Assembly: GCA_010015585.1 (NCBI GenBank)
Contig: ML975168.1
Source: Eremomyces bilateralis CBS 781.70
Lineage: Eukaryota
Strand: one strand, 5' to 3'
Length of the DNA stretch: 64,000 bases
In this document: positions 10,042 through 33,503 of the stretch, in pieces
How positions within the stretch are numbered: position 1 is the first letter of the stretch
Layout of the letters: every line of letters starts with the position of its first letter
The notes under the pieces: model-generated
What the model saw: only the letters and a program-made list of their open reading frames with translations
What the model was told of the DNA's origin: nothing
Databases searched by the model: none
Made by a program: the position numbers and the translations under genes

Positions 10042-10871
10042 GGCTGGTGAGATTTTCCCACCAAATGAGATTTTCCCACCAGCGCTGGTATGGTGGAAAA
10101 TTAATCGCTCAACTGGGCCTAGCGCTCATTTTCCATCTTCGACAACTTTCATGTTCAATCTGTTGTTCCATTTAAGTAACATATATTAGCTTCTCTATAT
10201 TATTAGGTATATCCTCTTTCTACTGACGGTGCTACCTCTTGCACGAATCGAGTCCTTTCCAAGCATTTGAAGCCGCCTCTACTGCAGCGCGCTTGGGGCG
10301 CTGTCTGGGCACATCTTGAGACTTAAAAAGAGCATTTTGAGCATCGACTTGTGCAAATTTTTCAGTGTAGAAAGCTTCCATATCTCCAAAGGTATAACTC
10401 TATGCCATTGTTGGAGTGCAGCAAGCATACACTCCGCTTATAGCAAGAGCCATATTCCGTGATTCGATCAGTTCTGTCTGCTGCAATAGACATTATGCGC
10501 ACTAGGGTTAAATGATCGGGGGTGGTTGTGATGCTTGTGTAGAACCTCCAGCTTCTACTTGTCGTCGTCTTTGTTCTTGAATATGAGAAGCCTAAAAGTA
10601 CCCCTATTAAGCGTGTACTCGTGCTTAGAATCCTTGCTCTTGACTGATATTTTCCGGATCGACCAGAGTAGTAGTAATATCGTGTCTTAACACCAGAATG
10701 GTGAGGTCTGCTCCGTTTGTAAGAGAAGAAACAGATTGAACATTGAAATTTGCAGTTATCTCTAGGTGAAGATGAAGGGAAACGAGCGCTAGGCCCAGTT
10801 GAGCGATTAATTTTCCACCATACCAGCGCTGGTGGGAAATCTCAAAACCTGGTGGGAAAATCTCACCAGCC
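10042..10871. mobile_element. Non-autonomous Mutator (MULE)-type DNA transposon, 830 bp
   Basis: Near-perfect TIRs of ~86 bp (10042-10127 and 10784-10871) with GG...CC termini, flanked by an exact 9-bp TSD TAACGAGAA (10033-10041 and 10872-10880). No intact transposase ORF. Confidence 0.92.
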
Positions 10872-11849: not shown

Positions 11850-13156
11850 TCAACTCCATTTCAGGATTGGTTTGATGATCTACCACAACATTAGTCTTGC
11901 GTCTTGTTCCAAGAGATGGCTATCAATATACCTTTCCATTCCGTACCTCATTTATTGCCTGTTCGAAGTCTTTTACATCGTAGAAGCTGCAGAGCTTCTC
12001 CAGGGGAAAGTTACCAGATCGATGCAGCTCCATCATTCTCGGGATGAACTGGTTCAAAGTTTCAGCTGTTGGCTAGTGTAAAGGAGCGAATCTCCTTACC
12101 TCTTGGGCAATAGAGTCTCCCTGACAAATCCCCCTCACAGTCTTATTGTTGTGCAAAAGATGCACTGGGTCTAGTTTCAAAACAAAGTTCGGGTCAGGGC
12201 TGCCAACCACGCCGACAGTCCCACGGCAACAGACACAATCGATCATCATATCGATGACTGCAGATACACCGGTGCAATCGATAGCAAAACGAGCTCCTCC
12301 GTCCGTAATTTTCTGGATCTCACACGGGATGTCTTTAACTTCTCTCGAGTTGACAACCTGAGTGGCTCCCAACTCTTTAGCTAGCTCCAACTTTTCGTTG
12401 ACAATGTCCACGACGATGATCTGTCGCAGTCCCAAGTACCTTGCTGCCATGATCGCCGCGATGCCGACGGTCCCGGCCCCAAATATGAGAAAGGAATCAT
12501 CTACAGAGGGCTTGAGAGCGTTGAGGACAGTTCCTGCTCCGGTCTGAAATCCGCACCCTAATGCAGCATATAGCGCCAAATTTTCTGGGTATGGACACTG
12601 AATCACTGAGTGTTGACTGACTACAGAGAGTTTCAGGAAGGACGACTGCCCGAAGAATTGACTTGATACGCGCCGGCCATCTGTGAGCTTCGCCGAATTG
12701 CTGTTATCGAGTCGTTTTGCAGCGAGATTAAGATGCTCAAATCTCGAACAGCACGCTGGATGACCTGCCGAGCAATTTGCACAGCTGTCACAGTGGTTGA
12801 AAGACAGGATCACGCTCGCGCCAACTTTGAGCGATGTGTCCTTAACTTCAGGCCCTACTGCGCGGACAACACCAGCTCCTTCGTGGCCAGGCACAGCGGG
12901 AAAGTCGAGAACAGTGTATGCGCCGGCAGAAGCAACGAGATCCTGTTGTTCCAACACGATCAGCCATTGCCAAACATAGGAGAGATAAGATATGCTGCGA
13001 AGCTGCATTGCTCACGGTATGGCAAATTCCAGTATATTTCATCTCCACCAGAACTTCATCAGGTCGCATATCATCAAGAACCACAGGCATGTGCTTAAAT
13101 CCCGAATTTAGCTCCTCCATCACCAACCCCTCCGTCTCTATCGGTGTGAACTCCAT
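11850..13156 (-). CDS. Zinc-dependent medium-chain alcohol dehydrogenase (aryl-alcohol dehydrogenase-like), 4 exons
   Basis: GICHT|D, GHEGAG, structural-Zn cysteines CDSCANC...CC, GCGFQTGAG and GAGTVG. The terminal exon is IIKPILKWS*. Confidence 0.92.
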
Positions 13157-13900
13157 GTTTGAATATATCTAATGGAGAGAGATTCCAGTAGTGAGCATAA
13201 ACGTACCAATTATCGATATCCAAAGCTGTTGCACTGTAGTCCATTATAGGAATATCACAATACGCATATATTGCACCTATCTACCTATGACGGAAGATAG
13301 TTTATCTGCCATCATATCGGATATAGCATGCGCTAAAGCGCTAGCCCTAGGATGTACGTAGTACGGCGCTACGACCTCCAAAGTGACCCACAATGGGAAA
13401 CGCTAGGAGATACCGTCCGGAACGGAGTATTTGGAACTACGACTACCTTGGTGCCGGTTGCCGCATTGCCTAATTTGGTAATACGGGACGGACTATCAGA
13501 CATCGCATACTGGGATGACTGACATTACCGAAGCCTTGTTGACAGCGGCTGAGAACTAAAGTCAACGGGAGTACGGGGTACGCATTTGCATCGGCAATAG
13601 AGCTGTGAGTTTCGCGGCCTAGGGATAATCGTCCATCGCAATTCGCAAATGAACGCTTGCTGATTGACCTTTATCTTAGGAGATAGCGTAGATGTATCTC
13701 ACCAGGACGAAGACCCCCTTTTCGAGATCCATGTTCCTAGTCTAGAGTTAACATCCATATCACCTTGCGTTCATATCAAAGTACAGTCCATTGTTCCTTG
13801 AAATGCTGCATATATTCCCCTTGATGGCTCTATACAAATTACTGTCCTAGATGCATACATTCTTTTCATATTTTCGAGTCATTAAAACGACCATTTCACA

Positions 13901-15579
13901 ATGTCGTCCCTCCCAGTCCCCGGTACGGTCAAGTTGGTCGATCTTCAAGGCACGTCGAATCTGCACCACGGGAAAAATCAGAAGGACATCATCTTGGTCC
14001 CTCAGCCGACTGAAGACCCGAATGACCCCCTCAGCTGGTCGTCAAGACGCCGATTGATTAGCACCCTTATTCAGATGGCGTGGACCTTGTTAGGCTCAGC
14101 ACACATCAACGGTCTCACTCCAGCGTACTTGCTCATCCACGAAGAGACTGGAATCACAATTTTTCAACTTAACACCGGCAATGGGTTGATGTACCTGCTA
14201 TTCGGCTTCGCTAACTTGATTACTCAACCGTATGCACTCAACTATGGTCGTCGTCCCGCGGCCGTCTTCTCAATGCTTATCACTTCCTTCCTTGTCCTCT
14301 GGAGCTCCTTCATGAACTCTGCGGCCGAATGGTATGCCAACCGCATCTTGATCGGAATCTCTTTCTCCGCTATTGAGTGCCTGATTGAGCTGTGCATTAC
14401 AGACACTAAGTTCATCCACGAACGTGGTCTACATATGGGCTTATATAACTGGGGGCTCTGGGGTGGAGCTTTCATAGCTCCGATTCCTGCCGGGTTTCTT
14501 GCGGAAGCCGCAGGCTGGCGCTGGATCAATAGAATGTATGCCGTGGTGGGATTCCTTCTCACCATTGCATGCTTCTTCCTGTTTGAGGAGACCATGTTCT
14601 ACCGCCCGCATGTCGATGGAATTGTGGACGCGGAGGACGATACCAAAAAAGCAGACGTCCGAGCCTTGGCGGAGAAGAATACAGATGACGAAAAAGCATC
14701 CCAATCATCGGGACTTTCTGTCGAACAAGTCGGCGAGACGTATCAAGTCAAGAGCTCTGTGCAGAAGTTGAAACTATGGGGCCACCGCGACCCCCGGCAG
14801 CCGAACACCTTCATGAAATTTTTCTTTTTGCCTTTCGAACTTCTCCGGTATCCCAGCATTGTCTTCTCGGGTATACTGGTTGGCGGCATTCTCTCCTGGT
14901 TCAATGTACTGCTTGGTACCATTTCTTCGGTCTTCGATGGCGACCCGTACAATTTCAGTGCCAATATGGTCGGTCTTACGTACATCGCCTGTTTGATTGG
15001 GTGCACGATTGGTTGCCTGATCTCAGGGTGGCTCAATGATAGCATTGCGACATTTGTGGCCCGAAAAAACAACGGAATCAAGGAGCCGGAAGCACGGTTA
15101 TGGGTGGCCATCGTTCCATTTATCCTCCATCCCGCAGGATGCGTTTTGTACGGTGTGGGTGCTGCGAAAGGTATCCATTGGGTAGGGGTCTGCTTCGGCC
15201 TTGGGGTATTGACATGCGCAATTGTTATGGGATCTGTCCTCGCTCTGAACTATTGCGTTGATTGTTACAAGGAGATTGCTGGAGAGGCTTTGATTACTGT
15301 TATTATCATCCGGAATTGCATGGGTAAGTTCACAAGCCCCTGGTTCTCTAATATATGGCAGATTTGCTGACTACCTTGAAAGGATTTGCTTTCTCATATG
15401 CAGTGTCGCCGATGATCGACAACTTGGGCCTTCAAGGAGCGTTCCTCCTGATGGCATTTTTGGGCATGGGCATCCATGGTCTTTCTTTCGTCATGATTGC
15501 TTACGGCAAGAAAGGGCGAGAAATTACAGCTCCGCATTACTGGAAACTAGTTGAAGAGCATGGCTTCCGTGCGCATTAG
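13901..15579 (+). CDS. MFS transporter; intron 15324-15382
   Basis: LVPQPTEDPNDPLSWS, YGRRP, FIHERG, GWRW and KEPEARL motifs with multiple hydrophobic segments. Confidence 0.92.
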
Positions 15580-16117
15580 TGCCGACTCTTTGTATAGAGC
15601 AGATGCTATTGTGGGAGAGGGTTCACTTCTCTTCCTACCACTGGGGTGTTCAATCACACTGGCCGTGATTAGAGCAGGCTAGCGCCTTATATATCTTCGG
15701 TGTGGGTCACTGAAGTAGACAAGGGTTGCGATCTGGTATTTTTGCCCTGGTAGAAATTTAAGTCGTTTTCTTCACTTTCAATGAAAATCTCGTAGAATCG
15801 ATGTTAGTAGTGAGAATTTTAGAGTGAATTTATCTAAATTGCTATATTCGTTCGACAGTATTCGTGCGATAGCATCCAATTCAAGTTCAACATTTGTGAA
15901 TTCTGCCATCCACCTCATGCTTAACTTGAACGCAAACCTGGCCTGCTTATTCATGGTGGACGCTTGATTGAGATACCGGTGTCTGGCACGATATATAATA
16001 ATGCCGATACATGGTTTTCAGAAAACGGGGAACGAATATTGATCGATACCTTCTAAGGCATTTTGAAGATTCATCTACAATGGCTGGCTGATATATTTAC
16101 ATCCATGTACAGCAGTA

Positions 16118-17234
16118 CTACACCTCTGAGAGGAGCCTCCCCATCTGCTCATCTAAGAATGCCCAATCCTCCTTACTGTCGCCAGGCCCTCCAGCCCAGT
16201 GACCCCATATACTGGGAATAACGCTCAAGGTCGCTCTCCCCTTCGGCATATTGTCTACCTCAACCTCAGAATCCTCCGGGGGAAAATACAGATCGGTCTT
16301 GCATGGGGCAAGCACAGCTTTCGCCTTGATACTCCCAAGAGCCTTCTTCAGGTCTCCTCCAAATTGTGGCAAGGCTGAAATGTCTCCAAGTTGCCAGGTA
16401 CGGAGCATGACTAAGGCATCTTCGGGATCGTTCGTAAGCGCCCATGTTTCCCAGAATTTGACAATGAAGTCTTCTGCATCCCGAGCACCGAAGTGGGTGT
16501 AGTGATTGTGCCGGTACCAAGGTTGGCTGAAACCCCATCCTGCGTATACTCGTCCCAATGCTTTGAGACCAACTACCCGCTGCTCAGTCGTCCAGGGGCT
16601 ACTCGAAGGGTACTGTTGCCCCTTGCCGATCCCTAGACTGGTACCGCCACGAGCGGCAATCAACGCACTTTTGACCCCCTCCAAGAAGACGTTGTTGTGA
16701 ATTGCAGTTTTTGCTGAGCCACATATAGGCGCAATGCAATCCATGAAGTCAGGATACTGAACAGCCCACTGGTACGACTGGGCGGCACCCATCGACCAGC
16801 CAACCACAGCTTTGGCATGTTTTACACCAAGTTTCTCGGTGAGTAGCCGATACTGTGCATGAACATTGTCGGCAAACGTGACCGTTGGAAAATTCTCACC
16901 GAGGTCAGGCCGGTTTGAAGGAGAGGTGCTTTCACCGTTTCCAAAAAGCGCCGGGACGACGATAAAATATTGTGAAGGATTCAGTGACACGTTGGAGCTC
17001 GAGAAGTTTTTGGCGCAATCGTGAACAGCTAGGACTGAAGTCAGCAGGAACATCCACAGATGTGCGGTTCAAGGGCGCCGAACATCCTGTATACCAGGTT
17101 GGATTGATGATCGCTGCATTTTGAGGATCACCATAGGTCTTGTATGCTAGTAATGCACCTGTGAGGATTTCACCCGACTCAAGCTTAAAGTCCCCCAGGT
17201 TAAATGTTTCAAGTCCATTTCCCGAAGAACTCAT
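16118..17234 (-). CDS. Homoserine O-acetyltransferase-like alpha/beta hydrolase, 1 intron
   Basis: FKLESGE...LAYKTYG, LFGNGESTSPSN, nucleophile elbow GWSMGA, DLYFPPED and SIWGHWAG. Confidence 0.88.
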
Positions 17235-18221
17235 CGTAGGCACTGCACTCCTGAGCTGCGGAGTTCTCTATATATAAGGATGGATGGACTTGATATGAAG
17301 TTCTGCTCAGTGGTTCTGAGTTACACTTGCAAATAATTCCTCGATTAGGATAGCTATCATATCGGAACCATGGTCTTAAGGATACTGTCGTTATGATGAC
17401 GTGTCGTCAAAGCTCGCCATAATTGTAGTGCAAAGTGCGGGGTTCAAGATTAGCAGATGTGCGTATCCACAGTACGCCTTAGGGCAATGGTCCCTATCGA
17501 CTGATCAGCCAGTGATAATCTTTAATCAGTGGGACTGAGGGCATGCTGAGTCCTACGTGCCGTCTACCATTTCGGAGTGGATAACGGCAACAGCTGAGTC
17601 GGCGATCATAGCTATATTAGGATTTAGGTAGTCATTGTCGTATGATGAGAATAGATTAACGCGGTATAGTTCCGTAGGATCCTGATAAGAGTATTCATAA
17701 TATATCTGAGTTGGAGTTGACTACGGTTCAGGATGCCACTATGTACTATGGTGTTGCATGGGGGGGTGTCGAGAGAGCCGACCCGGCTACTTATCCAACC
17801 CCGCAATTTGATTCAGGGGTAGCCAAGTGTAAACTTTTAGTAGTTATGTGGGTAGGTACCCATATTACCTTTTTTATCGGGACTCGGGAACAAGATTCCT
17901 ATCTTATCGATACCTAGTTACTGGGCCTGTGGCTCGTGAGGTACAGACGTGCACTCATTCGTGCAGTGTAGACAATCGTCATTCGGCACGGCTACAGCTC
18001 GCAGAGGCTGGGTCAGCTTTATGAATCACTCATTCACTCGCTCACTGGATGTCAACGCTAGTCTCATAGTGGAAGCGTCACTAGGGGAACACCAACATAC
18101 AGGTATGCCAAGTTTGCTGTTTATATTGAAGGGCGGAAAATTTGATCATGCCTCGTACACTCAGGTCTCTGTTTCTAATATTCATCCAATCGTAATAGAA
18201 GAATTACGGATTGACTGTTCC

Positions 18222-19152
18222 TTACCAACCTTTCTTAATATTGTATTCATCCACTGACTTTCTACACGCCTTAGCATTGTCAAGCGCAGTCGGCATGTCG
18301 GAATGAATGCAGAACAAGAAAGGCTGTTCTTCAAAGCCGAGTCTGATCATGGAGCCCTCCTTTTCCTTCACAGAGTCCTCGAAACAGACGGACCTAGTCC
18401 GCTCGTAAACGTCTTCCACCGTAGCTAAGTTGCTCGCCGCAACTGACTGGAGTACCCCGTCTTTGTTGTACTGTGTGTCTACATACGCCTCTTCCACGAA
18501 GATCAAGTCGTACTTCCTGCACATGGCACCCTGGTGCTTGGTGCCTTTCGCACCGAAAATGGGCACTTTAAATACGGCGCACGCCCTAAGCACGGCATCC
18601 ATGATAGCCAGATCTCGCTGCATGTAGAAGAATAGTTCTCCATGTGGCTTGATGTGGTTTAGCGGAACATCTTCTGCGTCCAGCATGGCCTTGAGCGCGC
18701 CGACTTGATATAGGATCATTGTGTACATATCGTCTGGGTGGATTTCGATTTTTCTGCGACCGAATCCGAGTAGATCTGTTCACAACGGATAAGCGTCTGA
18801 TCAGATGATGCACACCGCCGCTGGCGAAACACGAGGTGCGTGATTTGCACGCGGCGTACCTTGCAGTCCCGGGTGGGCACCAACAGCTACTCCATGCTCT
18901 TTCGCAAGTCGAATGGTTTTCAGCATTGTAGTAGGATCCCCAGCGTGGAAACCGCATGCCACATTGGCGTAGTCGATAACCTTTACTAGCTCGTCGTCCG
19001 GTCCCTGGGGAGCAGAGTTATATTAGTTCGCTGTCACAGCTCGTAAAAGCACGGCAAGATAATCGAGGATTGTTACAACGTACCAGTTTCCACCTCCCGA
19101 ATGCCTCTCCCATGTCGCAATTGATTGCAACTTTCTTAAGATATTGTGCCAT
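18222..19152 (-). CDS. lamB: LamB/YcsF (PxpA-like) lactam utilization protein, 3 exons
   Basis: Spliced reading gives [46 protein letters not shown] and CIHSD. Confidence 0.93.
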
Positions 19153-19534
19153 TTTTGGAATCTGTGGTATGCTCTAATTTGAGATTCAACGAGAGAATGG
19201 ACTATTCCGGTTTGTTTCTATAACAATAGTTCAAGAGTTCGATCTACTGCGCAAGACAATATATACTGTAGCTCTTAAAATAAAATGTTCGGATCACAAT
19301 CACAACAGGCATCTGGAAGGGTTCGGGAAGCTCGTCGCTAAAACCATAATAGCTCTAAATCGTGATCCAGCCAAGAAAGTACTGAGTAGGTTAAGATAGC
19401 AGATTCCGCCGTGCGACTCGGGTTGCCTTTCTAAGGTTGATGGGGTGGGTCCGATCTACCCCTAGTTCCTTGCAAGGGGGCTAGCTTTCCAACGTGCAGT
19501 GTCGATCGTAGTTCACCACAAATGATCGACGAGA

Positions 19535-19609
19535 GACGCCGCAACTCCATTTGGAGGTGTCAAAGAATCGGGCTTTGGAATGGTGGGCTCCAAGTATGGC
19601 ATTGAGGAA
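19535..19609 (+). pseudogene. C-terminal relic of an aldehyde dehydrogenase (succinate-semialdehyde dehydrogenase-like)
   Basis: Translates as [25 protein letters not shown], matching the ALDH C-terminal [21 protein letters not shown] pattern. The rest of the gene is not apparent. Confidence 0.75.
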
Positions 19610-19649
19610 TCGCCATGAATATCATTACCTTAACGCATCATAAATTAAT

Positions 19650-19816
19650 TAGGGCTGGACACGAGTATTCGTAGTCGAATACGAATAAATTTTAGAATTT
19701 CCGCTTACTAATATTCGTACGAATAAAGCGTCTCAAAATCTAGTGGAATACGAATAATCATTCCAAGGGAAAAGTGGAATACGAATAGCCACAATCCTTA
19801 TTCGTGTCCAGCCCTA
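19650..19816. mobile_element. 167-bp MITE with hAT-like TAGGG termini
   Basis: 18-bp TIR TAGGGCTGGACACGAGTA / TATTCGTGTCCAGCCCTA with 1 mismatch and internal GAATACGAATA repeats. The TSD is not clean. Confidence 0.8.
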
Positions 19817-20219
19817 ATAAATTTTGAGCAACAACTATTGACAAAAAGCACTGAATTGAAATCACTCTCTACTATGTAATCAGTGTTCCAGCGCAGCCAT
19901 GCCAGGTCCTTATGAGCCCCACAATTTGTACACACAGGACAAAGGCAAAATGAGTCAATTCACTTAAAATACGAACCAGAATCAAGTCTGAATAGGTGAT
20001 TGTGGCTCAGATTCACTATGTCTACAAGTTCCGCGCTTACTGGCGATGTCTCGTTACATTCGCAGGGGTATGTCATAGCATGGGAGATGAGGCTGGAACC
20101 AAGTTATCGGACCAAGCAATGTATTAAGCATGAATAAGGCTCATCATGTTGTTATCATCTCTGCTTTGAATTTGAAAAGGCGAAGATGGGAATAGGATTG
20201 TACAGAAATCGGTACATGT

Positions 20220-22393
20220 CTATAGTCGGGCCGACCCGCAACAAGCCCCTGGGCCTTCCACGGCGTCGTCTACCACCAATACACTTTTGTTGTCAGCCTG
20301 GTTGGAGATAGGCACATCCAAGGCCGGGTTGCGAGTGAAGAAATTGATCGGCTTCAGCGTCACCAACATTTTCTCCACAGGCATGACGGGCCAGTCCTCG
20401 ACTCTCGGATTGTGGGTTGTGCCGAAAGTGTGCCATATCACAATATCCTCGTTCCGCACACTTTGTGGCGCTTCTCGTGATTTGATCCAGGTTGCAATAC
20501 CCGAGCCAACCTCCGATTGTAGGGTATGTTCTCCAGCTGCAAACCGCTCGACATCTTGGTGTCGGGTCACCCAGATTGGGTGGTCCGTGAACTCCGACCG
20601 AATCGAGTGGAATGAGGATGGATGGGCGAGCAACATCTGCGAATAGTGCGGCACTAATTTGTAACCAACAGGGCCGCCAGAAATTGGATTGGTGACGTTT
20701 TCGTTGACGATCTTGAAGACGCGACCAGTTCGGTTGTCAGTGTCGAGGGATGTCTCCGTCTCAACGAACTCCTTCTTAGTAACATAGCCAACATTGGCCA
20801 TGCTGGAGGCATCCTCAACTGGTGCGGGATGAGATTCCTCCACCATGAGAGAATTATTGTGGCCATCGATGGCTGGGTCAACTCGAAGGGAGAACAAGTG
20901 TTGGTGATAAGGCGCCATGACTCCGGGAGCGACAACTGTTCCGTAGGGAACCTTGGCCCCAATATCGATAAAGGAAGTGCTCAGGATGCCCGTCGCGCGG
21001 ACTTCGTAGGATAACTCCGCTGCTTGATTGAACTGGAAAGCAAAGATGTACTCGTAGTTGCTGACGGTGATAATGGTCTGCAGCACAAGCACGCGAGATC
21101 GAGTGACGACGGCATTGTCCGTTCGATAGTTGGTATGCTTCCACAGAATGCCATCATCAACCTCGTGGCAGCAGATAACGTTCGGCATCTTGACTGGCAA
21201 GCCATCGTTCGTGTGGTGCCACGCATCAAAGTACTTGATGTGTCCCAAGCAGTCACATCCTGGAATGGTATTAACATGATATGCTCAATAATGATACTAT
21301 TCATGTCAGGGTACTTACCAAGGCCGAGATTGTTTGCGTTCACGCCGCCTCCATTGTTGCCAAAATCGAAAGCAGCCTTTCGAGGGTAAGGGGCTCGCGG
21401 GTCTCCGTATGGAACGAACATCTCGGACAATGATAGTCGGTAGAATATTTGTCTCCCATCGTATGTCACGTCGTGGATCACCAGGCCTTCCCGGTAGTTG
21501 AAGCCGACCCGGAACCTCCACTTCTCCCAGTTTATCAGGTTGCCAGAACACTGGAAAGACGGACCGGAGGGCTGGACCACATGCAGCGGCTGCACTGTCG
21601 TTCGGCGCTCGGGTACCAAATCTGGATGATATTCACTAGTGGAATGAAGTTTAGTTCGATCAAAGGGTCTCAAGTTCCCGTTTACGAGAGCCATTTTCTC
21701 GTCTGGGCCCGAAGGAACTTTCAAGACTTCCATTACCTTCATTTCATCTGACAGCTCAGCGATAAACTCCAAGGGATAAGCATAATGATTTGCATCATCA
21801 TGATCCGAGAACTTGGCATAGAAGAAACACTTCAAAGTTAATTAGCATTTGTTCATATTTATGGTATATCCATCCTTACTATGACGACACGCCGGCTCAT
21901 ATCGTTCATACCATCTGGCGAGTATGTCCACGGATCGCAGATCACGGTAGCCACATCTGGAAGTTGGAGGGCATCAATCGCAACCTGAATTTGAGGGTCA
22001 TCAAGGCATGCCTTTTCACATTTCTTCATCTCCCCGGCATCCACGTAGGCATGGTTGCCGTCCAAGCTCTTCACATCGTACAACTTCCTGGCCCCCAGAT
22101 CAACACTAGCCTGCCGGAATTGCGTCGCATTCTCGAGATAGAATTGAATTTGGGCGACACGTGGCGGAGGCGGAGGAAGACGTTTGCTAAGCCTCTCTGC
22201 TTCAAGATAGGGGATCAACTGCTGCTTTGGCGGCTCGGAGAGAGTGATGACTCGGAAAATTAACTGCGCCTCAAGGAAGCTATCCCGGACTACGCTTGCA
22301 GCCTATGTCGAGCGTCAGTAATGCAATACACACCATACAAATGCCACTGACTGAGGAGATTTCCTGAGGGGTAAGTGGATCGAGGGGATGCAT
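20220..22393 (-). CDS. Copper amine oxidase, 4 exons
   Basis: MHPLDPL start, FRVGFNYREG, EMFVPYGDPR, TPQ consensus TVSNYEY, HQH copper ligands and HNPRVEDWPVMP. Confidence 0.96.
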
Positions 22394-22902
22394 ATTTCCT
22401 GTGATTGCTGATAGGATGTTTGACCTAGATTTCCGCACCCTCGACACCCGATCAAGGCGCGGTGGTGTATATACTTGAATGCGATTTTACGAGCATTCCT
22501 GGGCCTAAAGTACGCAATAGGTAATAGTAATCGCAGAATTGCCTAAATAGGCAACTTGGCGGAAGATCCAGAATAACTAAACTAGCTTAGACGGTTGTTT
22601 GGCTAAATCATCGGCTTACCGATCTGTTGAGTCTAGCGCAATCTATCAGAGCTTCGGATCTACCTGTACTGTGTAGGCAGTTCGAGCCCTCTCTCCCCTT
22701 TCGATAGAGGAAAGCAGTTACGGCCTTGAAAGCATATGCTTCGGGATACGCGATGGCAGTTGGCATACCTACCTTATCAGCATGTAGCATAGGCGATCCA
22801 TTGGATTCGCACGAAGGTATCGTACAAAGGCAGAGGATGTACATTTCAAATTGAGCCGTCAGTTTCTTCCTTATCTTCTGAGAGCATGTTAGACGAGTGA
22901 CA

Positions 22903-25900
22903 ATGGAGCACCCACAATTGCAGAGTATCAAACGCGTTCTGATTGCCAATCGAGGTGAAATTGCCGTGCGATGTATTCGAGCGTGTAAAGCAGTGGACGC
23001 GACAAGTGTTGCGATATACACGAAGTCCGACGCAGCGTCTCTGCACGTGACCCAGGCTGACGAGTCTCTTTTGCTTCAGGGCGACGGGACAGCGGGATAT
23101 TTGGACGTGTAAGTAGGCGATATTCATTCGTCCTAGATATTTCTGAATATAATTTGGCTCATCTGTTCTGACCATGTCGTTAGCGATGATATCCTGCAGA
23201 TATGCAAAAAACACGCCATCCATGCCGTTATTCCAGGCTACGGGTTTCTCAGCGAGAATGTGGACTTCGCGAAGAGGGTAATAGATGCCGGGATGGTCTT
23301 CGTTGGCCCATCTTCGGACTCGATTCTAGAGATGGGCTTGAAACATAGAGCAAGAGAGATTGCAATTCAGGCGAAGGTGCCCGTGGTACCTGGCACCGAT
23401 CTGCTCGAATCCGAGGACGAAGTATTGGCTGCCGCGGAGCGCCTTGGATATCCAGTAAGGGCACCCTAGAGCGAGTAACGAGAATTTATATTGATGTGAT
23501 CTCACAGGTGATGCTCAAAGCCACCGGTGGAGGAGGCGGTATGGGTCTTCAAGTCTGCAAATCGACCGAGGACGTTAGCGCTGCTTTCGCCATGGTCCGC
23601 AGTAGAGGAGAGAAGCTGTTCAAGAACTCAGGGTTGTTTCTCGAAAAATACTATCTCAATAGTCGCCATATAGAGGTCCAGGTCTTTGGCAATGGCACCG
23701 AGACCGTTCACTTCGGCGAGAGGGAATGTAGCATTCAACGTCGGCACCAGAAGGTGGGAGCCGATCTTACATGCTTCAACACGAACTGATCTGACAATTC
23801 TTTTAATTAGGTCATCGAAGAGTGTCCAAGTCCGTTTGTTGCAGCTCATCCCGAACTTCGGCAACAGCTGACCGAATGCGCCACGCGGTATGCCATGCGA
23901 CTGAATTACAAATCCGCAGGCACAGTCGAGTTTCTAGTCGACGATGAGAGCGGTGGCTTCTTCTTCTTAGAAATGAACACCAGATTGCAGGTCGAACACG
24001 GAATTACAGAACTGTGTTACGACGTTGATCTAGTCGCTCTCATGTTGCGACAAGCTGATATGGAAAAACTCGGGGCTGGTGGCATCCCATCATCAGAACT
24101 CCGCAGTTTGCAAAAGCCTGGTCCTACCAGCGCGGCGATCGAGGCTCGTATTTATGCGGAAGATCCATACCGAGGGTTTGCCCCCAGCCCCGGTATCTTC
24201 CAAGAAGTTCACTGGCCGGAACAAGAAGGGGTACGAATAGACACGTGGGTTCAATCTGGCCAGGACGTGAGCCTACACTATGGTACGTACAATTTTATGC
24301 TACTCAGGGTATTTCGAGATCTGGCGCTGACAAGAGAATAATAGATCCCCTACTGGCAAAAGTCATGGTGCATGCGCCCACGAGGGAGCAGGCCATAGAG
24401 AAGATGGGCGATATTTGTTCAGAAGGCATCGCTCTGAAAGGCCCTACAACCAATCTGGACTTTTTAAGGAAAGTGATGGCCAGCGATGCCTTCGACAAGG
24501 GGGATACATTGACAAATTTCCTAGACACCCGCTTCGCTTATGAGCCGTGCGGGATCGACATTATTAGTCCTGGCGCCTATTCGACCATCCAAGATTTCCC
24601 GGCACGAGCATCAATTGGCCATGGTGTTCCCAAGAGCGGTCCAATGGACAACATAACTGCTCGTATTGCTAATCTCCTGGTGCACAACGCACCAGGGACA
24701 GAGGTTATTGAGATGACCTTATTTGGGGCGGAGCTCCTATTCACATCCGCAGCAGTGGTATCAGTGTGCGGTGCAAGCGCTCTAGTGACTGTTGACGGAA
24801 GTGAGCGACCTATGTGGTCTACTCTCGTGGTCAAGGCTGGTCAAACTCTGAAAATCGGTACAGTTAGTGGTGTTGGCTGTCGAATGTACCTCGCTGTTCG
24901 AGGAGGTTTCCCTAATATCCCCCTATTTTGTGGATCCAGGTCAACAACTCCAAGCCTGAAATTTGGTGGTACCCAGGGACGAACGATCCGTAAAGGTGAT
25001 TTCCTGCAACTCACGGATTTGACTTCGACGTGGGCGGCCGAGACTCATGAATACACTCTCCCGTCCGCCATGATACCACCGATGGAGGTCAAGGAAGTGT
25101 ATGTTCTACAAGGTCCCCACGATTCCGACGACATAATGACCATGGCGGACAAGGACATGTTGTACAACACAGAATGGAAAGTGGGCCACAATTCGAATAG
25201 AACCGGTGTCCGCATTATTGGCCCAGCACCGGAATGGGCTCGAAAAGACGGAGGCGAGGCTGGTTCCCACCCTTCCAACTATCTCGAGTAAGTTGTCACC
25301 CCGCGATCAGATCCATTGATGTTGGTTTCCCGAACGCTAAAGCTTTAAAGTTATGGCTACCCTTCTCCTGGAGGTGTGAACTGGGGCGGTGACTCCGGCT
25401 GTATATTCTCAGTGGACAGCCCGAATTTCGGAGGACTCATCTGCTCGACCACGGTGATCTCCGCCGAGATGTGGAAGTTGGGCCAATTGAAACCTGATAC
25501 CTCCTTTCGCATGATACCCGTGTCTCTCGAAGATGCCGTCCAGCAAATTCGCCGTGTCGATCTATGCCTTTCGGCTATTGCGGATGAAATCGATGGAAAG
25601 CTTGCGGCTGCAGTACAGCCGGTCTGGAGTCTTGGTCGCAGTGATATCATACCGTACGGTGCTGTTTTGCAGACCGTCCAAGCATCCTCGGAAAATCCAC
25701 TCCGACCTAAAGTGGTGTATCGACAGGTACGTATCAACACATTGGAGACGAAAATGCTTGTTTTGCTGACTCCCCTAGGCTGGGGATAGATTCCTTCTGA
25801 TCGAATTTGGCGAGCAGAGGACGGATATTGCCGTGGTCGCTTTAATTCGGCTGCTAATGGAGAAGTTGGAGTCGCTGGCCGATCTAACGCTGCTCCTCAC

Positions 25901-26984
25901 CCCACATGTGGGATCAGTGACAATCGAATACGATCCATTCCAGATATCCCAGAGCAAGCTCCTGTCGCGCATTCATGAAATCGAATCCAACATCCTGGCG
26001 ACGATCGATATAACCATTCCTTGCCGTGAGATCCGATTGCCACTTGTGATGGACCATCCGGATGTTCAGGAGTGTATCCAGAGATACATGGACACGGTCA
26101 GGAACAAAGCAGCATATCTTCCCGACAACATTGAGTATCTCCGCAAGTGCAATGGCTTGCAGTCACGAAGGGAAGTTTTCGAGAAAATGCTCCATACGGA
26201 ATACGTAGTGGTGGCTGTTGGGTTCCTCTGCGGTGCTCCAATGCTCTTTCCACTGAATCCGACATTCCTACAGTGTCAAAAATACAACCCCACAAGGGTG
26301 TCGACTCCGGGTGGAACCTTAGGGCTTGGTGGCTCCATCGTGGCTGCTTACCCCATTGAGCAGCCAGGAGGGTACATGATTGTCGCAAGGTCCTTAGAGC
26401 TGTGGGACCCATTCGGGACCAAGCCAGGATTTACCTCGGAGAGGCCATGGATGTTTGAACCTTTCGACAAAATCAAATTCTACGAAGTGAGCGTCGAAGA
26501 GTACGATTTGCTAGCACTAGATTTCTCTGCTGGGAGATATCAGTGGCAGGTTTCAGAGTCGTCTTTCAATGTGCGCGAGGCATATGACACGTTCCAAAAG
26601 GCGAAGTCCGATGCTAGTGTTCTCGAGTACAAGAGGCGCCAACAAGAAGGACTGAAGGAGCAAGAGCAAATTGAAAGAGGCCTTTACTCCACGTGGAAGG
26701 CCGAGATAGAATCGGAAGAGAAGGCGGAATTGGGAGGTGAGAGTACGGTGGACCTAAACGACACCAACTCCGTTTCATCACCAATGGCGGCCAATGTGTG
26801 GAAGGTAGAAGTGAAGCCCGGAGACGAACTCAAAGAAGGCCAACTCATCTCGATCCTGGAAGCCATGAAGATGGAGGTCAATATCTATGCTCAAAAGAGT
26901 TTAGCTGGCTTGAAGGTCGATGCGATTCTGAAAAAGCCTGGAAGTATCGTCGGTGCTGGTGATGTGATTCTGAGCGCTAAATAA
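22903..26984 (+). CDS. LamA-like / urea carboxylase-family biotin enzyme (biotin carboxylase + two carboxyltransferase domains + biotin carrier), about 7 exons
   Basis: LIANRGEIAVR, PGYGFLSEN, GGGGMG, RECSIQRRHQK, EMNTRLQVEH, NRTGVR, KYNPTR and the biotinyl motif EAMKME. There is no amidase (allophanate hydrolase) domain. Confidence 0.92.
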
Positions 26985-27434
26985 AGAATACGTATATGAA
27001 AAGAGAGCACGCAGGACTATCTACATAATATATACTGCAACATCGAGATGTATTTGTCTGGCCAGAAAGAACAGGGTGAATTGGATGCCAAAGTCGAGTC
27101 TGGGTTCGTCTCTTATCATTCAGGCAACTTTGGTATTATTTTCTGTCTGACTCAGCCAACTGCTGGAATTTTGAGTGGTAATTATTATTTTTCGAAGTAC
27201 GCATATTCATTCATCAGCTAGCCCTGCATCCTCCAGAAGTATTTCTCACAATACTAATCCCCTCTGTCAATCCCTGAACGCGATAGTGGGAAGCCGCACT
27301 GAATTGCTTAACAGTATTATCATATAAGCATTTAAGGACGGTAAGGGGTGAGGAATAAGGCAATAGTGGTGTAATATTAGTGACAATCGTTATCCACATT
27401 GTGAGCTCTTCCGATTTTATTCAATCGTCAAGGT

Positions 27435-28744
27435 CTAATACGATTTGAAAACAGCATTAGTGCGCAGGTTGATATATTCCCCGGCGCTAATAGGGGGATA
27501 TTTTGCACCGTCTCCTTTCAAACTTTCAATGCATTCGACAACTTTGCTACGATCAGCTTGAACGAAATAAGGCATTGAAAACCTCTCCTTCGTAAGCTCC
27601 AACCCATCTCCTAATTCACGTTCCGCCGGAGGTTCCACAACACGGTGCAAGTTGGATTTCAGGCTGTCGTTGGTCCTGTTGGGCATCATCATTAGTTACT
27701 TTCCATATGGTACATATTATGAGCATGTCACGGTGAAGAGGGGGTATCATCGTCTCAGTGCTTACCATCGCATAAGGAAATCGCCAACATTCACTATCAC
27801 AGATCCCTCCACAGGTGTGGCAACGACTGCGCAGTTTTCAGTTATGGTTCGGTTTTGCACTACGGAGAATGCACTTACGATACGTGCCGGGATTTTCAGG
27901 ATTCTCTACCTGCAATCCTCCAACATCATCTTGGAACAAGATCGTGATAGTACCAAAATCGGTGTGAGGTGAGGTCCGCGCCGTCTCCCCAGAGCTCAGT
28001 GTGGCCCGCTCAATCGGAGGATACCTAAGGAAGCGGAACAAATTGTCTGCGTCTTCGTGGTAGTGGACAAAGTAGTTTTCCTCCAGGCCAAGACCTATGG
28101 CGATGGATCGGAGGATGTCCAGCGTCAGCTCTTGAGCCTCCATGAAGAATTCTTTGACGAATTCCTCAAATCCGGGAAGAACATCTTTGGAAGGATAACG
28201 GTTGGGCTCACGTTCCTGGCCGATGCCCCAATACGGGCCAGTCTCAAATAACTCCTTTGCATCGGGGATGCCTCGATGTGCCTTCAAACCGTTCTCATCG
28301 TTAGGATCCAGATTTGAGAGTTTCTCCATACCGACGGGTCCATAACCCCGAGCACAAATTTGGAGATTCCCCGGTATTGACTCTGGCTCCGGCCGGCGCA
28401 GCTCAGGGCTCATTAGTACTTCTTGAGGGAGGAGGAAAAGCTTTTTACTCTATATTCAGGTGTAAGCATTCTCCCGAAAAGGGGTTGATGGTATTCAGCC
28501 AAAAGAGAGGCCGCAAGCCACATCGACAGACTGCAAAGACGAAGTTTCAGTGACATACCCAATCGAAAAGAGCCTGAATCCTTTCTTTTGGGAGTCCATG
28601 ATTCACCAGGTACACAAAACCATAAGTCTTGAACGCATAGGTGACCCGATTGGCAGTTTTCATTCTTTCCTCAGAGGTACCGGCACGGAAACCGGAAAAG
28701 TCGAAGACGGGCAGGGACGAGTCCAGTACAGATGTTGAAGGCAT
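27435..28744 (-). CDS. 2-oxoglutarate/Fe(II) dioxygenase (IPNS/DIOX family), about 4 exons
   Basis: LPVFDFS, GFVYLVNHG, RFLRYP, HTDFGTITILFQD, SNLHRV and RFSMPYF (HxD...H...RxS). Confidence 0.92.
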
Positions 28745-29327
28745 AATGACTTATCGGTATAATGATGATGGTAATATTATCTGACATGCTCCACAGCAAT
28801 TCCGGAGTCAAAGTTATGGCTAAGCTGATTATCATGAAATATCTAGGAATAATATACCACCTCCAGATGAAGAGGCGCTTCACACAATGTAGTGTCTCCA
28901 GGTTTGGGCGGGGAAAGTGATTGGCATGACAATATGTGGTCAAGCCTACCGTTATCCGTCTCGATATCCTAGCTTCAGAGATGCGGCTCGCTTTTCTGCA
29001 AGTGGCATGGCGCGAGGCCTTCAGTTTCCAGTGTCCGGGGAATGATCGACCCAACTCCTGACACTGATATCAGTATGCCAAGTGCAACACTACGTTTCTT
29101 CCATCAAATTGATTCATTTTAAATGCTGCGCTCGATCACATGTGATAAGTTCGATAAGTAGATTGTGACGAGCACGTGAAATTTAGTGCAGATGCGGACA
29201 CAAAGATACTAGCACTGACACACTGATATGGTAGCAAAGAGAAGATTTTTCAAGAGAGCGTTCGAAGATGTACTCTTTACGTCTTTCCAAGTTATCAATT
29301 CAGGTTCTATTCGTCACCAACTCAACT

Positions 29328-31443
29328 TCAGAACATAAAATATGTGGCCTGCCTGTCCGTCTCTCTAATGAATCTCTCAGTGGGCGACTCCCAGAGCGGC
29401 CTCCCCTCGGGGGCCGGTGGATCCGTCGTTGCCGATTTCTCCCAGATCCTTTCCGTCGACGACATTATATATTCCCGCGACCGGTCACGGTAGACCTCCA
29501 TCATGGCAGCATGTTTTCGCCGTACCCAATCCCGATCATCCGGTGTTACGGCCTCCCGGGCGACCATGTAGAAGGGGAATGGCACGGACGAGTCGGGGCC
29601 GCAGCCGGGTTGCAGTCGATCCATCAGTCGGAACAGGTGTCTTCGGATCATCTGGACGCGTGTAGACCTCGTGGGATCCAGAAACACACGGCGCATTAGG
29701 AGAATATGCGCGGTCCAATAGAAGCATTCGCAGACAATGTCAAGAGGAGTTTCATCAGATGGAGCCGGAGATAGAGCAGTGGATTCGCCGGACATGGTCG
29801 CGTTGTTATCTTCTCCGCGAAGCATCGCGTCATAGTAGCGGCTCCCCCATATGCGCATCTCGGTCTCCAAACTGTATGCCTTAGCTTGAATCCGAGATTG
29901 CGAGCTATTTTCCATCACTATATCTGCACTTAGCACGGATATCTGGGCTAGGAAGCAGAGAACTCGTTGCGGACAACCTTGCATCTGGCGGAACGAGGGG
30001 TCCGCATGATCAAGGTCCTCATTGCTTTGGTACATGTAGAAGTCCAGTGGCGCCAATGGAGCGCGAAAACGTAGATGAGCGAGTACAACGTCTACCATCG
30101 CGAACCGATAGACGAGTAATCGCGGGAAGATGGAGTTGGCAGGTTGATGAAGGTAATTCAGGCCCCGAATGAAATGTGAAGCACACTTCATGTGGATTTC
30201 AGCGCATCCGATCCCCGTCATAAGCACTGATGACGTTTGCATCATGATGGCGGCTAAAGCAATCTCTCTGTGCGAAAGTATCGAGAAAACACCCTTTGTC
30301 TGGAAGATACTTCCAGACTCAACTCTGGTGGCTTCGCCCGCATCTTTGTTCCCACATAGATCATTCAGAGCCTCCTGAAGAGAATTGAGCGCTCGTGTTT
30401 GCCGTAACGACAGTAAACCCTCGCTGCTCCGACCGTAGTTGTACATGTGACCAGTAGCGACCGAGAGTATGCCATGTAGGAGGACTGGGTAGGAGAGTGC
30501 GACAAGAGCAAGCTTTCGATACGGGTTCTGAGCTCCATCATACGCAGGTATACAAGTGCAGACTCGTTTGAAATCTGAGTTAGTTAGCAATTGCCGAGTT
30601 CCCGGACGAGTAAATTATCATTTTTACTGACAATATGCAAATGCAATCTCCTCCCCTGGGCTTTGAAATATCTGGAATAGGAGGCTGTTTAACGTATTAT
30701 CAATGACCCAAGAGCTAAAGCCGGCGGGTTGCGAGACGTCTTGGCATGATTCATCATCCCCTGATATCCCATCCTGGATGTCGTTGTCGAGCTCTTCCAC
30801 AGTCGTGGATTCCTGCATCTCAAACCCTCCCGGGAAATCGTCTTGAAAGGGTAATTCTTTAGAACCATGCGGTTCGTTGGTGGATCGTATGATATCGGGC
30901 CATCGTAGACATTGCGCATCCATAAAGTCGGCTCCCAGCTCCGGAAACAAATCGAGCGATGCTGGGTCTAAGTCCAGTACATTTGGTGGGTCTTCAACCA
31001 CTGGACGCGCCGTGAGAATTTCTTCTTGGGTATATGAGCGAACTCTCTGCATCGGCGCCTCAGTAACCCTAGTTGTAGGCTGCAATGGTATCTCTGGCGA
31101 AGGTATTCGCTCGCTGCGTGTAGCATGTGTCGATGGAGGTGACGCCAGAAATCCTTGAGCGGTAGAGGTCGTTACGCGTTTGGTGGATTTGTTCTTCTGG
31201 CGCTGTGCCTTATCGAAGGAGTTAATACTGCCAATGCTTGTCCATTTCAATGTCGTCTGGTAACCGCATTCAAGACCACGGGATTGGCAACTCCGGCATA
31301 TCGGTCGTTGTTCGTCACACTTCCGATGCTTGCGACGACATGTGGTGCATCCTGTTCGTTATCAGCAGCTCTCCAGTTCCCCGAATGAGCAGATCACAGG
31401 ACAAACCGAAGCGTGATCTTGACTGAACGCTGGCCGCCTGCAT
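29328..31443 (-). CDS. Zn2Cys6 transcription factor with fungal-specific TF domain, 3 exons
   Basis: Splicing gives MQAASVQSRSRFG-CTTCRRKHRKCDEQRPICRSCQSRGLECGY. The C-terminal region contains NPYR...LLHGILSVA. Confidence 0.9.
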
Positions 31444-32212: not shown

Positions 32213-33503
32213 GTAGACATGTGTCTGGGCACACCCCCGAAAATCACCAAATTTGATCGCCATACACCGTATCTTGAGATACACTGAAAAACACGTACAA
32301 ATGCAAATTCAGTCTACTTTTTTGATTTCTTAATTGGGAAATATCTAATATTTCGTACGCCACCCTTTTGCCTTGGTTAATGCCTGTAGACGTCGCGGAA
32401 TTGAGTCAATCAGCTCTCGGATCGTCTCCTGAGGGATCGCCCACCACGCCTCCTTTAACGCCGCATTCATGGCCTCCCGTGCCTCCTCCGAGGCGCCCAT
32501 CATCTTCAATTCAGGGTGGAGCTCTATGACCTTGGTTTCAACAGATGCCACATGTGTTCGATGGGGTTGATGTCTGGGGAATTGACCGGCCAATCTATGA
32601 CCCAGATGCCGTGCGTCTCCAGCCATTCTTGGGTGATTTTGGCCGTATGGATCCTTGCGTTATCCTGGATAACAATATCCCCGGGCTCGTACGTATGGAG
32701 GAGTCCCTCCTCCAATGCAGCGATGTAGGATTTCGCGGAATACCCCTGTCTTGCGGAGGTTTCGTCGCGGTCCATGATCACCAGATCTGATCGCCTATCA
32801 CGCGAAATTAAGCCCCAAATAATCTGCGAAATCGCCTTCCCTGACGTCTTTGGCTCTACCATTCACGGTTTATACGCTTCGTGGTACAGGCGCCATACCC
32901 ATACCTGCTTACCGCCCGCCCCGTTCTCATACGAGCACTCGTCCGTAGAGTGGGTCCGGGAGAAGTCGAATTTAAGGAATTCGTGGGCAAACCGGAGGCG
33001 GTCTTTTGCGTGATGGGGCTTCAGGTGAGGCCTCTTTTTCGCTCGCCATTTCGTAAGGTGATATTTCTTAAGGGTTCGGTAGATGGTCTTCCTAGAAACG
33101 CGGAGGTACGAAATACCTGCGAGGAGCTCTCCGTACTCCATTTTAGGAAATCGACGCACGATTTGAACAATATGCCGTTCGTCAGAGCGTGATAGCTTAT
33201 GGGGACCCTCTTCACGGGATAAGGATACGGTGGTTTGGTGTTTTTTCCACCTCTCTATAGTCCCATACACAGCGTGTCGAGAGACGCGAAAGTTGCGCGC
33301 GATTTCAGTCTTCGGTTTCCCATCTTCAATAGCCTGAATAATCCCAACTTTTTGATAGACTGATAACTCCTTATTAGGCCCTCGATTACCACTAATTTCT
33401 GTGCCAAAAGGCCTCATTTTGGTAAAGTTATTGATTGTCAAAGTAAGTGGTGGTGTAGAGATATTCAGCTGAGAATGGGGTCTGTGCCCAGACTCTTGGC
33501 TTA
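32210..33503 (-). mobile_element. Tc1/mariner (DD34E) transposon with pseudogenised transposase (33417-32345); element ends approximate
   Basis: HTH N-terminus, STDECS and QDNARIH...WPVNSPDINPIE with 34 residues between D and E. In-frame TGA at 32863-32865 and a frameshift near 32536. Inverted core GTCTGGGCACA at 32223-32233 and 33483-33493. Confidence 0.88.

Follow-up and report, generated by a model that had tools for sequence, protein, structure and literature searches.

A cluster of LamB, urea-carboxylase-like and copper amine oxidase genes in Eremomyces bilateralis as a candidate pathway for amine and lactam nitrogen

In Aspergillus nidulans, lamA and lamB are lactam-catabolism genes of the AmdR regulon, needed to grow on 2-pyrrolidinone and induced by way of AmdR (PMC8016842). 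In the bacterial PxpABC system, the lactamase role is tentatively assigned to PxpA and the ATPase role to PxpBC (PMC8453981), and in Pseudomonas putida the pxpABC paralogue PP_2920-2 is a specific butyrolactam hydrolase while PP_4575-7 acts on 5-oxoproline (bioRxiv 10.1101/2021.12.09.472016). Many Pezizomycotina and Basidiomycota have stand-alone ‘urea carboxylases’ in addition to urease (PMC3073912), and the terms lamA, lamB, lactam and amine oxidase occur zero times in that paper on fungal urea-carboxylase evolution. Here we analyzed a 64-kb stretch of DNA (the window) from the Dothideomycete Eremomyces bilateralis CBS 781.70, in which a LamB/PxpA-family gene, a gene for a urea-carboxylase-like biotin enzyme (LamA-like) and a copper amine oxidase (CuAO) gene lie in one block of eight genes at positions 11923-31443. 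Our tentative reading, a quite plausible one, is that the block is a modular catabolic cluster that scavenges nitrogen from amines and from lactams (cyclic amide/imine compounds).

From left to right, the block encodes a Zn-dependent alcohol dehydrogenase (ADH), a major facilitator superfamily (MFS) transporter, a MetX/homoserine-acetyltransferase-like alpha/beta hydrolase of the esterase type (the esterase), LamB, CuAO, the LamA-like enzyme, a 2-oxoglutarate (2OG)/Fe(II) dioxygenase and a Zn2Cys6 transcription factor. Gene models that combine reading frames and GT..AG sites with alignments to homologues and with RNA joints give eight uninterrupted open reading frames (ORFs) with 20 introns, all canonical. 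Pfam scans covered 20 ORF pieces between 12 and 31.4 kb and 45 ORF pieces of the whole window, and 19 of the former 20 returned the expected families. The initial annotation had described 11850-31443 as eight genes with two divergent pairs, with no polyketide synthase (PKS) or nonribosomal peptide synthetase (NRPS) and distinct from a standard urea locus, and all of this is borne out. The divergent pairs are ADH/MFS (starts at 13156 and 13901, 744-bp spacer) and CuAO/LamA-like (starts at 22393 and 22903, 509-bp spacer). Among the 45 ORF pieces, Pfam detected no core synthase (PKS, NRPS, terpene cyclase, DMATS or another) and no Amidase or AH_C domain, and a tblastn search of the window with a bacterial allophanate hydrolase query gave no match. 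For transcripts we used X1, the one public run with the locus, which is labelled ‘RNA?’ and was taken as contigs; spliced joints are seen in it, and its depth cannot rank the genes. The spliced contigs match 13 of the 20 model introns and cover the MFS, esterase, LamB, CuAO, LamA-like and Zn2Cys6 genes, so these six genes are transcribed and spliced. The ADH gene and most of the dioxygenase gene lie outside the contig cover, which says nothing on their expression.

The LamA-like enzyme carries the Pfam domains Biotin_carb_N, CPSase_L_D2, Biotin_carb_C, CT_A_B, CT_C_D and Biotin_lipoyl in this order, which is that of urea carboxylase, and it aligns end to end with the structures 3va7 and 5i8i (E 4e-225 to the Kluyveromyces lactis urea carboxylase 3va7). 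The biotin site EAMKM (EAMKME) is intact in the last exon. The general-base lysine of the carboxyltransferase (CT) domain is also kept, with QKYNPTR aligned to TKYNPSR at K1605 of K. lactis urea amidolyase, the residue named as the CT general base in PMC5770610, and all 31 of the sequences aligned have this lysine. The window enzyme shares 68% identity with its Thozetella homologue and 39% with an enterobacterial urea carboxylase. In a tree of 111 urea-carboxylase-like proteins it falls in a well-supported clade (clade B, 50-61% identity within it) that also holds Thozetella, Geosmithia, Clonostachys, Xylaria and Leotiomycete proteins, while another clade (clade A, 44-45% identity to the window enzyme) holds the four Aspergillus sequences among the matches and most Chaetothyriales; Exophiala dermatitidis is present in both. 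On this tree the window enzyme is a paralogue of the Aspergillus-containing clade, so the name LamA-like refers to its architecture and its partner and makes no claim of orthology with LamA of A. nidulans. The initial annotation had likewise called it LamA-like, which holds for the urea-carboxylase-like architecture and the LamB partner. In an approximately unbiased (AU) test, a tree with all Dothideomycete LamA-like proteins in one clade is rejected (p 3e-8, for a group chosen after seeing a tree); horizontal transfer of the cluster between fungal classes is possible on these sequences, with hidden paralogy as a further option.

Several other features of the LamA-like models were noted. The window protein is 100% identical to the database protein P0001 (‘urea carboxylase’, E. 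bilateralis) from residue 1 of P0001 onward, and this public model (1134 aa) begins at 23293 and lacks the first 105 residues, including most of Biotin_carb_N. An exon from 22903 followed by the intron 23109-23183 restores these 105 residues, which match Thozetella P0002 from its residue 1. The LamA-like P0025, labelled as the Dothideomycete Lasiodiplodia mahajangana, nests in Xylariaceae beside Nemania, which could reflect mislabelling, contamination or transfer. Three Colletotrichum models (P0059, P0065, P0077) have a C-terminal methyltransferase domain, and the models P0062 and P0106 (Trichoderma chlorosporum and Fusarium flagelliforme) have a Fungal_trans domain; these are either fusions or merged neighbours, and they suggest that LamA-like genes have other partners in those clades. 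A metagenome scan with the LamA-like C-terminus returned no relative.

LamB aligns over its full length with structures of the LamB/PxpA family (nearest 2dfa, 1v6t, 2xu2 and 1xw8) and has the motifs NCDMGE, GFHAGD, KPHG and CIHSD intact. In the window, it lies 3.7 kb from the LamA-like gene with CuAO in between, and in two clade-B models, P0036 (Chlorociboria) and P0020 (E. dermatitidis), LamB precedes the urea-carboxylase-like part within one protein. A search of 1.84 billion representatives with a LamB exon found P0396 (1512 aa), in which the LamB, biotin carboxylase (BC), CT and biotin carboxyl carrier protein (BCCP) domains are all complete and a short linker is present, and P0457, in which LamB is joined to BC. 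Each of the two is ~40% identical to the fused fungal model P0036, suggesting a separate lineage of fusion. The tie of LamB to a urea-carboxylase-like enzyme that had been supposed for this locus is therefore seen here as one locus and elsewhere as fusion or adjacency. The best LamB representative of the search, P0376, was set aside because its gene model runs LamB together with an NLR-like gene that is unrelated to it.

Topaquinone (TPQ) amine oxidases are defined by the TPQ motif N-Y-D/E-Y and three His copper ligands. The window CuAO has NYEY as the TPQ precursor and, as copper ligands, HQH and a further His in WHTFGTTH. Its C-terminus, -ARL, presumably fits the pattern of a type 1 peroxisomal targeting signal (PTS1), and from its sequence the enzyme is probably peroxisomal. 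The nearest structure is 3loy (E 1e-92 vs 4e-66 for methylamine oxidase), which we take to be AO-2 of Hansenula polymorpha. AO-2 prefers aromatic amines (PMC3382800). The six closest CuAOs (P0121-P0125 and that of the window, 82-85% identical) come from Eremomyces and Lophiotrema, Thozetella and Coniochaeta, and Aspergillus nanangensis and Talaromyces marneffei, and the Thozetella CuAO that adjoins a LamA-like gene is 82% identical to the window enzyme. All eight CuAOs that are linked to a LamA-like or esterase gene fall in one 18-row clade of the 122-row tree (Shimodaira-Hasegawa-like support 92), implying that the linked CuAOs form a dedicated sublineage, as far as this tree goes. An inner clade of six rows (support 100) mixes Eurotiomycetes, Sordariomycetes and Dothideomycetes, and its branching contradicts the species tree. 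A CuAO metagenome scan gave 80 loci, mostly ~42% identical, and LamB, LamA-like or esterase genes are found in the flanks of none of the 80.

To see whether the genes recur together, we compared the positions of LamA-like, CuAO and esterase in other fungi through their accession numbers. In the window itself, accession order agrees with gene order, as the esterase is KAF1810055 and the LamA-like enzyme KAF1810058, with LamB and CuAO between them. The LamA-like and CuAO genes are consecutive in the Sordariomycete Thozetella sp. PMI_491 (KAH8892168/69), three apart in Halenospora and Tricladium and four apart in two Coleophoma species (all Leotiomycetes). Altogether, LamA-like lies within four genes of CuAO in five of nine other species that have both a clade-B LamA-like and a CuAO match (among the matches listed), and in none of four species whose LamA-likes all belong to clade A or to other clades (Cladophialophora immunda, Exophiala viscosa, Cyphellophora and E. 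oligosperma). The esterase is three genes from CuAO in Thozetella and five in both Coniochaeta ligniaria and A. nanangensis, and in E. dermatitidis it is five genes from the LamB+LamA-like model. By accession, these neighbourhoods are KAH8892168-172 (Thozetella), KAH6662112-115 (Halenospora varia), KAH8685367-370 (Tricladium), RDW60679-683 (Coleophoma), OIW30441-446 (C. ligniaria), FE257_003717-003722 (A. nanangensis) and KAL2443994-999 (E. dermatitidis). In the esterase tree of 114 rows, the linked esterases group together in a cluster-specific sublineage of 10-13 rows.

The remaining enzymes have intact motifs as well. The ADH has GICHTD, GHEGAG and a four-Cys zinc site, and its nearest structures are 5tnx (E 1e-64) and the benzyl alcohol dehydrogenase 1f8f (2e-58), vs ~1e-34 for generic ADHs. 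The esterase, identical to the database protein P0245, has the nucleophile motif GWSMG, and its nearest structures are 5d6o and 5e4y, which presumably represent the esterase subfamily of homoserine-acetyltransferase-like proteins, including MekB. MekB is a broad-specificity esterase (PMC2975365). The dioxygenase has HTD...NLHRV (HTD...H) intact and is nearest to the fungal thymine dioxygenase 5c3o (E 3e-26). The MFS transporter returned generic MFS clusters only (ESM Atlas), and a Colletotrichum model that joins MFS and CuAO (P0158) was rejected as carrying its orthologue (30% identity over 83 aa). In the promoters, we counted sites matching HGATAR, which we take to be the consensus of nitrogen GATA factors. 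The 4791 bp of cluster promoters contain 35 such sites, vs a mean of 18.0 in shuffled sequences, of which 1 in 500 reaches 35; compared with the non-coding DNA outside the cluster (2.9 sites per kb), the cluster promoters are ~2.5-fold enriched. This enrichment fits a nitrogen-regulated catabolism, as a sequence pattern, and shows no dedicated control. A sigma-70/terminator scan of the divergent promoter between CuAO and LamA-like found nothing; these are bacterial signals and irrelevant in a fungus.

Taken together, the gene content suggests how a catabolic pathway could run. The LamA-like enzyme and LamB would form an ATP- and bicarbonate-dependent system for ring or amide opening, a biotin-bearing fused counterpart of PxpABC, in which the LamA-like enzyme plausibly N-carboxylates the amide, LamB hydrolyzes the product and CO2 is lost. 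We know of no lactamase for which such a sequence of N-carboxylation and hydrolysis was demonstrated biochemically. CuAO could act in series with this system in either of two ways. It might deaminate the omega-amino acid released by ring opening to give ammonium, H2O2 and an aldehyde, a deamination that is carried out by a transaminase in A. nidulans. Or it might convert a primary amine or diamine into a cyclic imine or aminoaldehyde precursor, and because CuAOs are known to cleave cyclic imines (PMC6345859), it might produce or cleave such an imine. The benzyl-alcohol-type ADH would act on the aldehyde or on a carbinolamine. The esterase and the dioxygenase may trim or hydroxylate the substrate, the MFS transporter would import it, and the Zn2Cys6 factor together with a GATA factor would control expression. 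A bolder version, which we consider possible but doubtful, is that the ‘urea carboxylases’ which fungi have in this clade do not act on urea at all and instead provide the carboxylating half of a LamB-requiring, biotin-dependent opener of lactams or cyclic amides, wired here to its own peroxisomal CuAO lineage. The whole would then be a mobile catabolic island that passes from one fungal class to another and turns an N-heterocycle or a diamine into ammonium.

Several observations weigh against the catabolic cluster as we read it. Accession numbers are only a proxy for gene order, and the comparison spans three of the eight genes, LamA-like, CuAO and the esterase. LamA-like is not near CuAO in four of the nine clade-B species (Scytalidium, Hyphodiscus, Geosmithia and E. 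dermatitidis), and Xylaria has many LamA-likes and no cluster-type CuAO among the 120 CuAO matches listed, implying that the LamA-like and CuAO modules can work apart. No clade-B LamA-like from Coniochaeta, A. nanangensis, T. marneffei or Lophiotrema, which carry the closest CuAOs (82-85% identity, among the matches listed), is present among the 120 matches listed. As CuAO and the esterase are co-located in Coniochaeta and A. nanangensis without such a match, and given the four species in which LamA-like and CuAO are separate, the cluster appears modular, not one fixed eight-gene unit. In the promoters, a CGG/CCG dyad is common to no more than three of six, and 6- to 8-mers common to the six promoters are no more frequent than in shuffles. 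The initial annotation had inferred a dedicated regulator and named co-conservation as a point to check. On the latter, LamA-like, CuAO and esterase genes lie near one another again in further fungi, from four classes, with LamA-like and CuAO separate in four of nine clade-B species; on the former, there are the Zn2Cys6 gene itself and the HGATAR enrichment, with no regulator motif found to be common to the promoters. Furthermore, A. nidulans LamA is only presumed to belong to clade A, by way of the four Aspergillus sequences, and the fused LamB and urea-carboxylase-like models may in part be annotation merges, P0020 being clearly truncated. Finally, urea or guanidine as the substrate of the LamA-like enzyme stays compatible with its sequence, because the general-base lysine is kept and the identity to true urea carboxylases is ~39-40%.

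The modularity raises the possibility that two independent modules stand side by side with no common substrate, namely an amine-oxidase module for aryl-alkyl or aliphatic amines (CuAO and esterase, perhaps with ADH, MFS, dioxygenase and transcription factor) and a LamA-like/LamB lactam module. The pairing of CuAO and esterase in Coniochaeta and A. nanangensis, where no clade-B LamA-like is among the matches listed, and the distance between LamA-like and CuAO in the four clade-B species would be natural on this account, and so would the presumed kinship of CuAO to AO-2 with its preference for aromatic amines and that of ADH to benzyl alcohol dehydrogenase, since a CuAO and an ADH make a sensible pair alone. 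It has to contend, however, with the 509-bp promoter from which CuAO and LamA-like diverge here, with their direct neighbourhood in Thozetella, with the recurrence of the pair in Leotiomycetes at different spacing, i.e. through rearrangements, and with the single clade formed by the linked CuAOs. We regard this alternative as unlikely, and as one to be taken seriously.

We also considered that urea or guanidine is what the biotin enzyme truly carboxylates, in which case it would clear urea or guanidine arising from a ureido- or guanidino-amine (e.g. of the agmatine type) through CuAO or the 2OG dioxygenase, with LamB replacing allophanate hydrolase or having no part. The full urea-carboxylase architecture, the close match to the K. 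lactis enzyme and the general-base lysine agree with this, and ethylene-forming enzymes, which release guanidine from arginine, are among the weaker structural relatives of the dioxygenase. For contrast, we examined 62 loci around Enterobacterales urea carboxylases, 52 of them with full flanks; these are close kin and count as one lineage. Allophanate hydrolase lies within 8 kb in all 52 full-flank loci (58 of 62 overall), against none in the window, and LamB is found in none of the 62. In two of them (L001 and L059), urea carboxylase has as its neighbours allophanate hydrolase, a regulator of the GntR type and an ABC transporter of the urea type (Peripla_BP_5, BPD_transp_2, ABC_tran), which makes a textbook urea operon. 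At 21 CT-domain positions the fungal clades A and B have a common residue that differs from bacterial urea carboxylase, and at Y846/D849 (P0001 numbering) the K. lactis urea carboxylase has W/N, as the bacterial enzyme does; the CT signature is thus unlike that of the bacterial and the yeast urea carboxylases. The LamB fusions and adjacency argue for joint action, and LamA, the one genetically studied fungal stand-alone enzyme, serves lactam use (PMC8016842). A urea or guanidine carboxylase therefore seems rather improbable to us.

Lower still, and in our view quite improbable, is a small biosynthetic cluster without a core synthase that makes an amine-derived alkaloid or lactam, where CuAO would make a reactive aminoaldehyde or imine, the dioxygenase would hydroxylate it, the MetX-like enzyme would act as acyltransferase and the MFS transporter would export the product. 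No core enzyme, be it a PKS, an NRPS, a terpene cyclase or another, is seen in the 64 kb, systems of the LamB/PxpA type are known as hydrolases (PMC8453981) and the enrichment of GATA sites fits nitrogen catabolism, whereas the mix of oxidase, dioxygenase, MetX-like enzyme, ADH, MFS and Zn2Cys6 genes resembles fungal tailoring sets, and the patchy distribution and the incongruence of the CuAO and LamA-like trees with the species tree are common in secondary-metabolite clusters. That the eight genes are a chance neighbourhood of unrelated genes, as the three-gene comparison and the lack of a common promoter motif might allow, is already disfavoured to the point of being barely credible, since three genes are co-located again in other fungal classes, each as a dedicated sublineage.

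The positions of the genes, their introns and the divergent promoter are collected in Table 1.

Table 1. Coordinates of the eight genes and the divergent promoter in the window.
Feature	Coordinates	Strand	Details
Zn-dependent alcohol dehydrogenase (ADH)	11923..13156	-	369 aa; introns 12049-12099, 12943-13015, both inferred; Pfam ADH_N, ADH_zinc_N
MFS transporter	13901..15579	+	539 aa; intron 15324-15382, RNA-backed; Pfam MFS_1; divergent from ADH
MetX/homoserine-acetyltransferase-like alpha/beta hydrolase (esterase type)	16118..17234	-	353 aa; intron 17029-17083, RNA-backed; Pfam Abhydrolase_1
LamB/PxpA-family protein	18222..19152	-	255 aa; introns 18776-18859, 19005-19083, both RNA-backed; Pfam LamB_YcsF on two exons
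Copper amine oxidase (CuAO)	20220..22393	-	671 aa; introns 21260-21318, 21830-21879, 22303-22351, two RNA-backed; Pfam Cu_amine_oxid E 7.5e-120
Divergent promoter common to CuAO and LamA-like	22394..22902	.	509 bp; 5 HGATAR sites, 9.8 per kb
Urea-carboxylase-like biotin enzyme (LamA-like)	22903..26984	+	1239 aa; six introns, five RNA-backed
LamA-like introns	23109-23183, 23455-23507, 23754-23810, 24283-24344, 25288-25350, 25727-25778	+	
2-oxoglutarate/Fe(II) dioxygenase	27435..28744	-	352 aa; introns 27676-27765, 27827-27878, 28450-28558, inferred; Pfam DIOX_N, 2OG-FeII_Oxy
Zn2Cys6 transcription factor	29328..31443	-	667 aa; introns 30575-30631, 31352-31406, both RNA-backed; Pfam Zn_clus, Fungal_trans_2

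Two of the 15 listed X1 joints match no gene model. One, 14514>14563, lies inside the MFS gene with splice signals on the opposite strand, and the other, 27591>27803, skips 211 nt over the 3’ portion of the dioxygenase gene and has plus-strand signals; both may come from antisense or read-through transcripts. The left border of the block is ~8 kb without Pfam matches, and this gene-poor stretch contains a 768-bp element (10072-10839) with 76-nt terminal inverted repeats (91% complementary). Directly to the right of the cluster lies a Tc1/mariner-like transposase remnant (32345-33507; HTH_Tnp_Tc3_2, DDE_3) broken up among three frames, so the cluster is flanked on both sides by mobile-element debris. 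Between LamB and CuAO we noticed an element (19642-19824) resembling a miniature inverted-repeat transposable element, with 26-nt inverted ends (92% complementary) and an end motif found nowhere else in the window. The X1 contig depth spikes over this element (330 vs ~10) with loose ends, as expected of a multi-copy element.

All of the gene families are already known, as is the LamA/LamB pairing from Aspergillus genetics. We found no paper that describes a CuAO-LamA/LamB cluster in full-text literature searches, whose coverage mostly excludes subscription journals, and the recurrent linkage of a distinct LamA-like clade with dedicated CuAO and MetX-like esterase lineages is apparently new. 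To our knowledge, the function of the fungal stand-alone ‘urea carboxylases’ is known only from A. nidulans genetics, and a clade that travels with LamB, CuAO and the esterase gives these enzymes a testable pathway context, with lactams, cyclic imines, diamines and aryl-alkylamines as candidate substrates. It also supplies a candidate for the regulator and a definite partner for the enzyme. If true, biotin-dependent ring opening would be a new route of amide activation, relevant to the breakdown of pyrrolidone-, valerolactam- and caprolactam-type compounds.

Compared with the described systems, the locus resembles A. nidulans lamA/lamB in having a stand-alone urea-carboxylase-like enzyme and a LamB_YcsF protein in one locus, without allophanate hydrolase and in a nitrogen-catabolic context. 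It differs in that the window enzyme belongs to the paralogous clade, 44-45% identical to the one that holds Aspergillus, that CuAO separates LamB from LamA-like and is itself, in place of LamB, divergently paired with LamA-like, and that the window has its own Fungal_trans_2-type Zn2Cys6 factor and five further genes. With DUR1,2 urea amidolyase and bacterial urea carboxylase, the LamA-like enzyme has in common the domain architecture, the biotin site, the catalytic lysine and ~39-40% identity, whereas its partner is LamB in place of allophanate hydrolase and its CT-domain signature residues differ. Like the peroxisomal CuAOs that yeasts use for growth on amines (H. polymorpha AO-1 and AO-2), the window CuAO is a TPQ enzyme, nearest to 3loy, with a PTS1-like C-terminus, and would release ammonium from primary amines; unlike them, it is part of a dedicated sublineage found in company with LamA-like, the MetX-like esterase or both. 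PxpABC systems open lactams in an ATP-dependent and substrate-specific manner and have an adjacent dedicated regulator, and their parts are all represented in the window, LamB being of the PxpA family, CT_C_D of the PxpB family and CT_A_B of the PxpC family. However, PxpABC consists of three separate subunits without biotin domains, whereas here a single protein of 1239 aa combines the PxpB- and PxpC-like parts with BC and BCCP, and only LamB is separate. The fusion with BC and BCCP implies a carboxybiotin step that is absent from PxpABC, and the fungal system is, unlike the bacterial one, linked to a CuAO.

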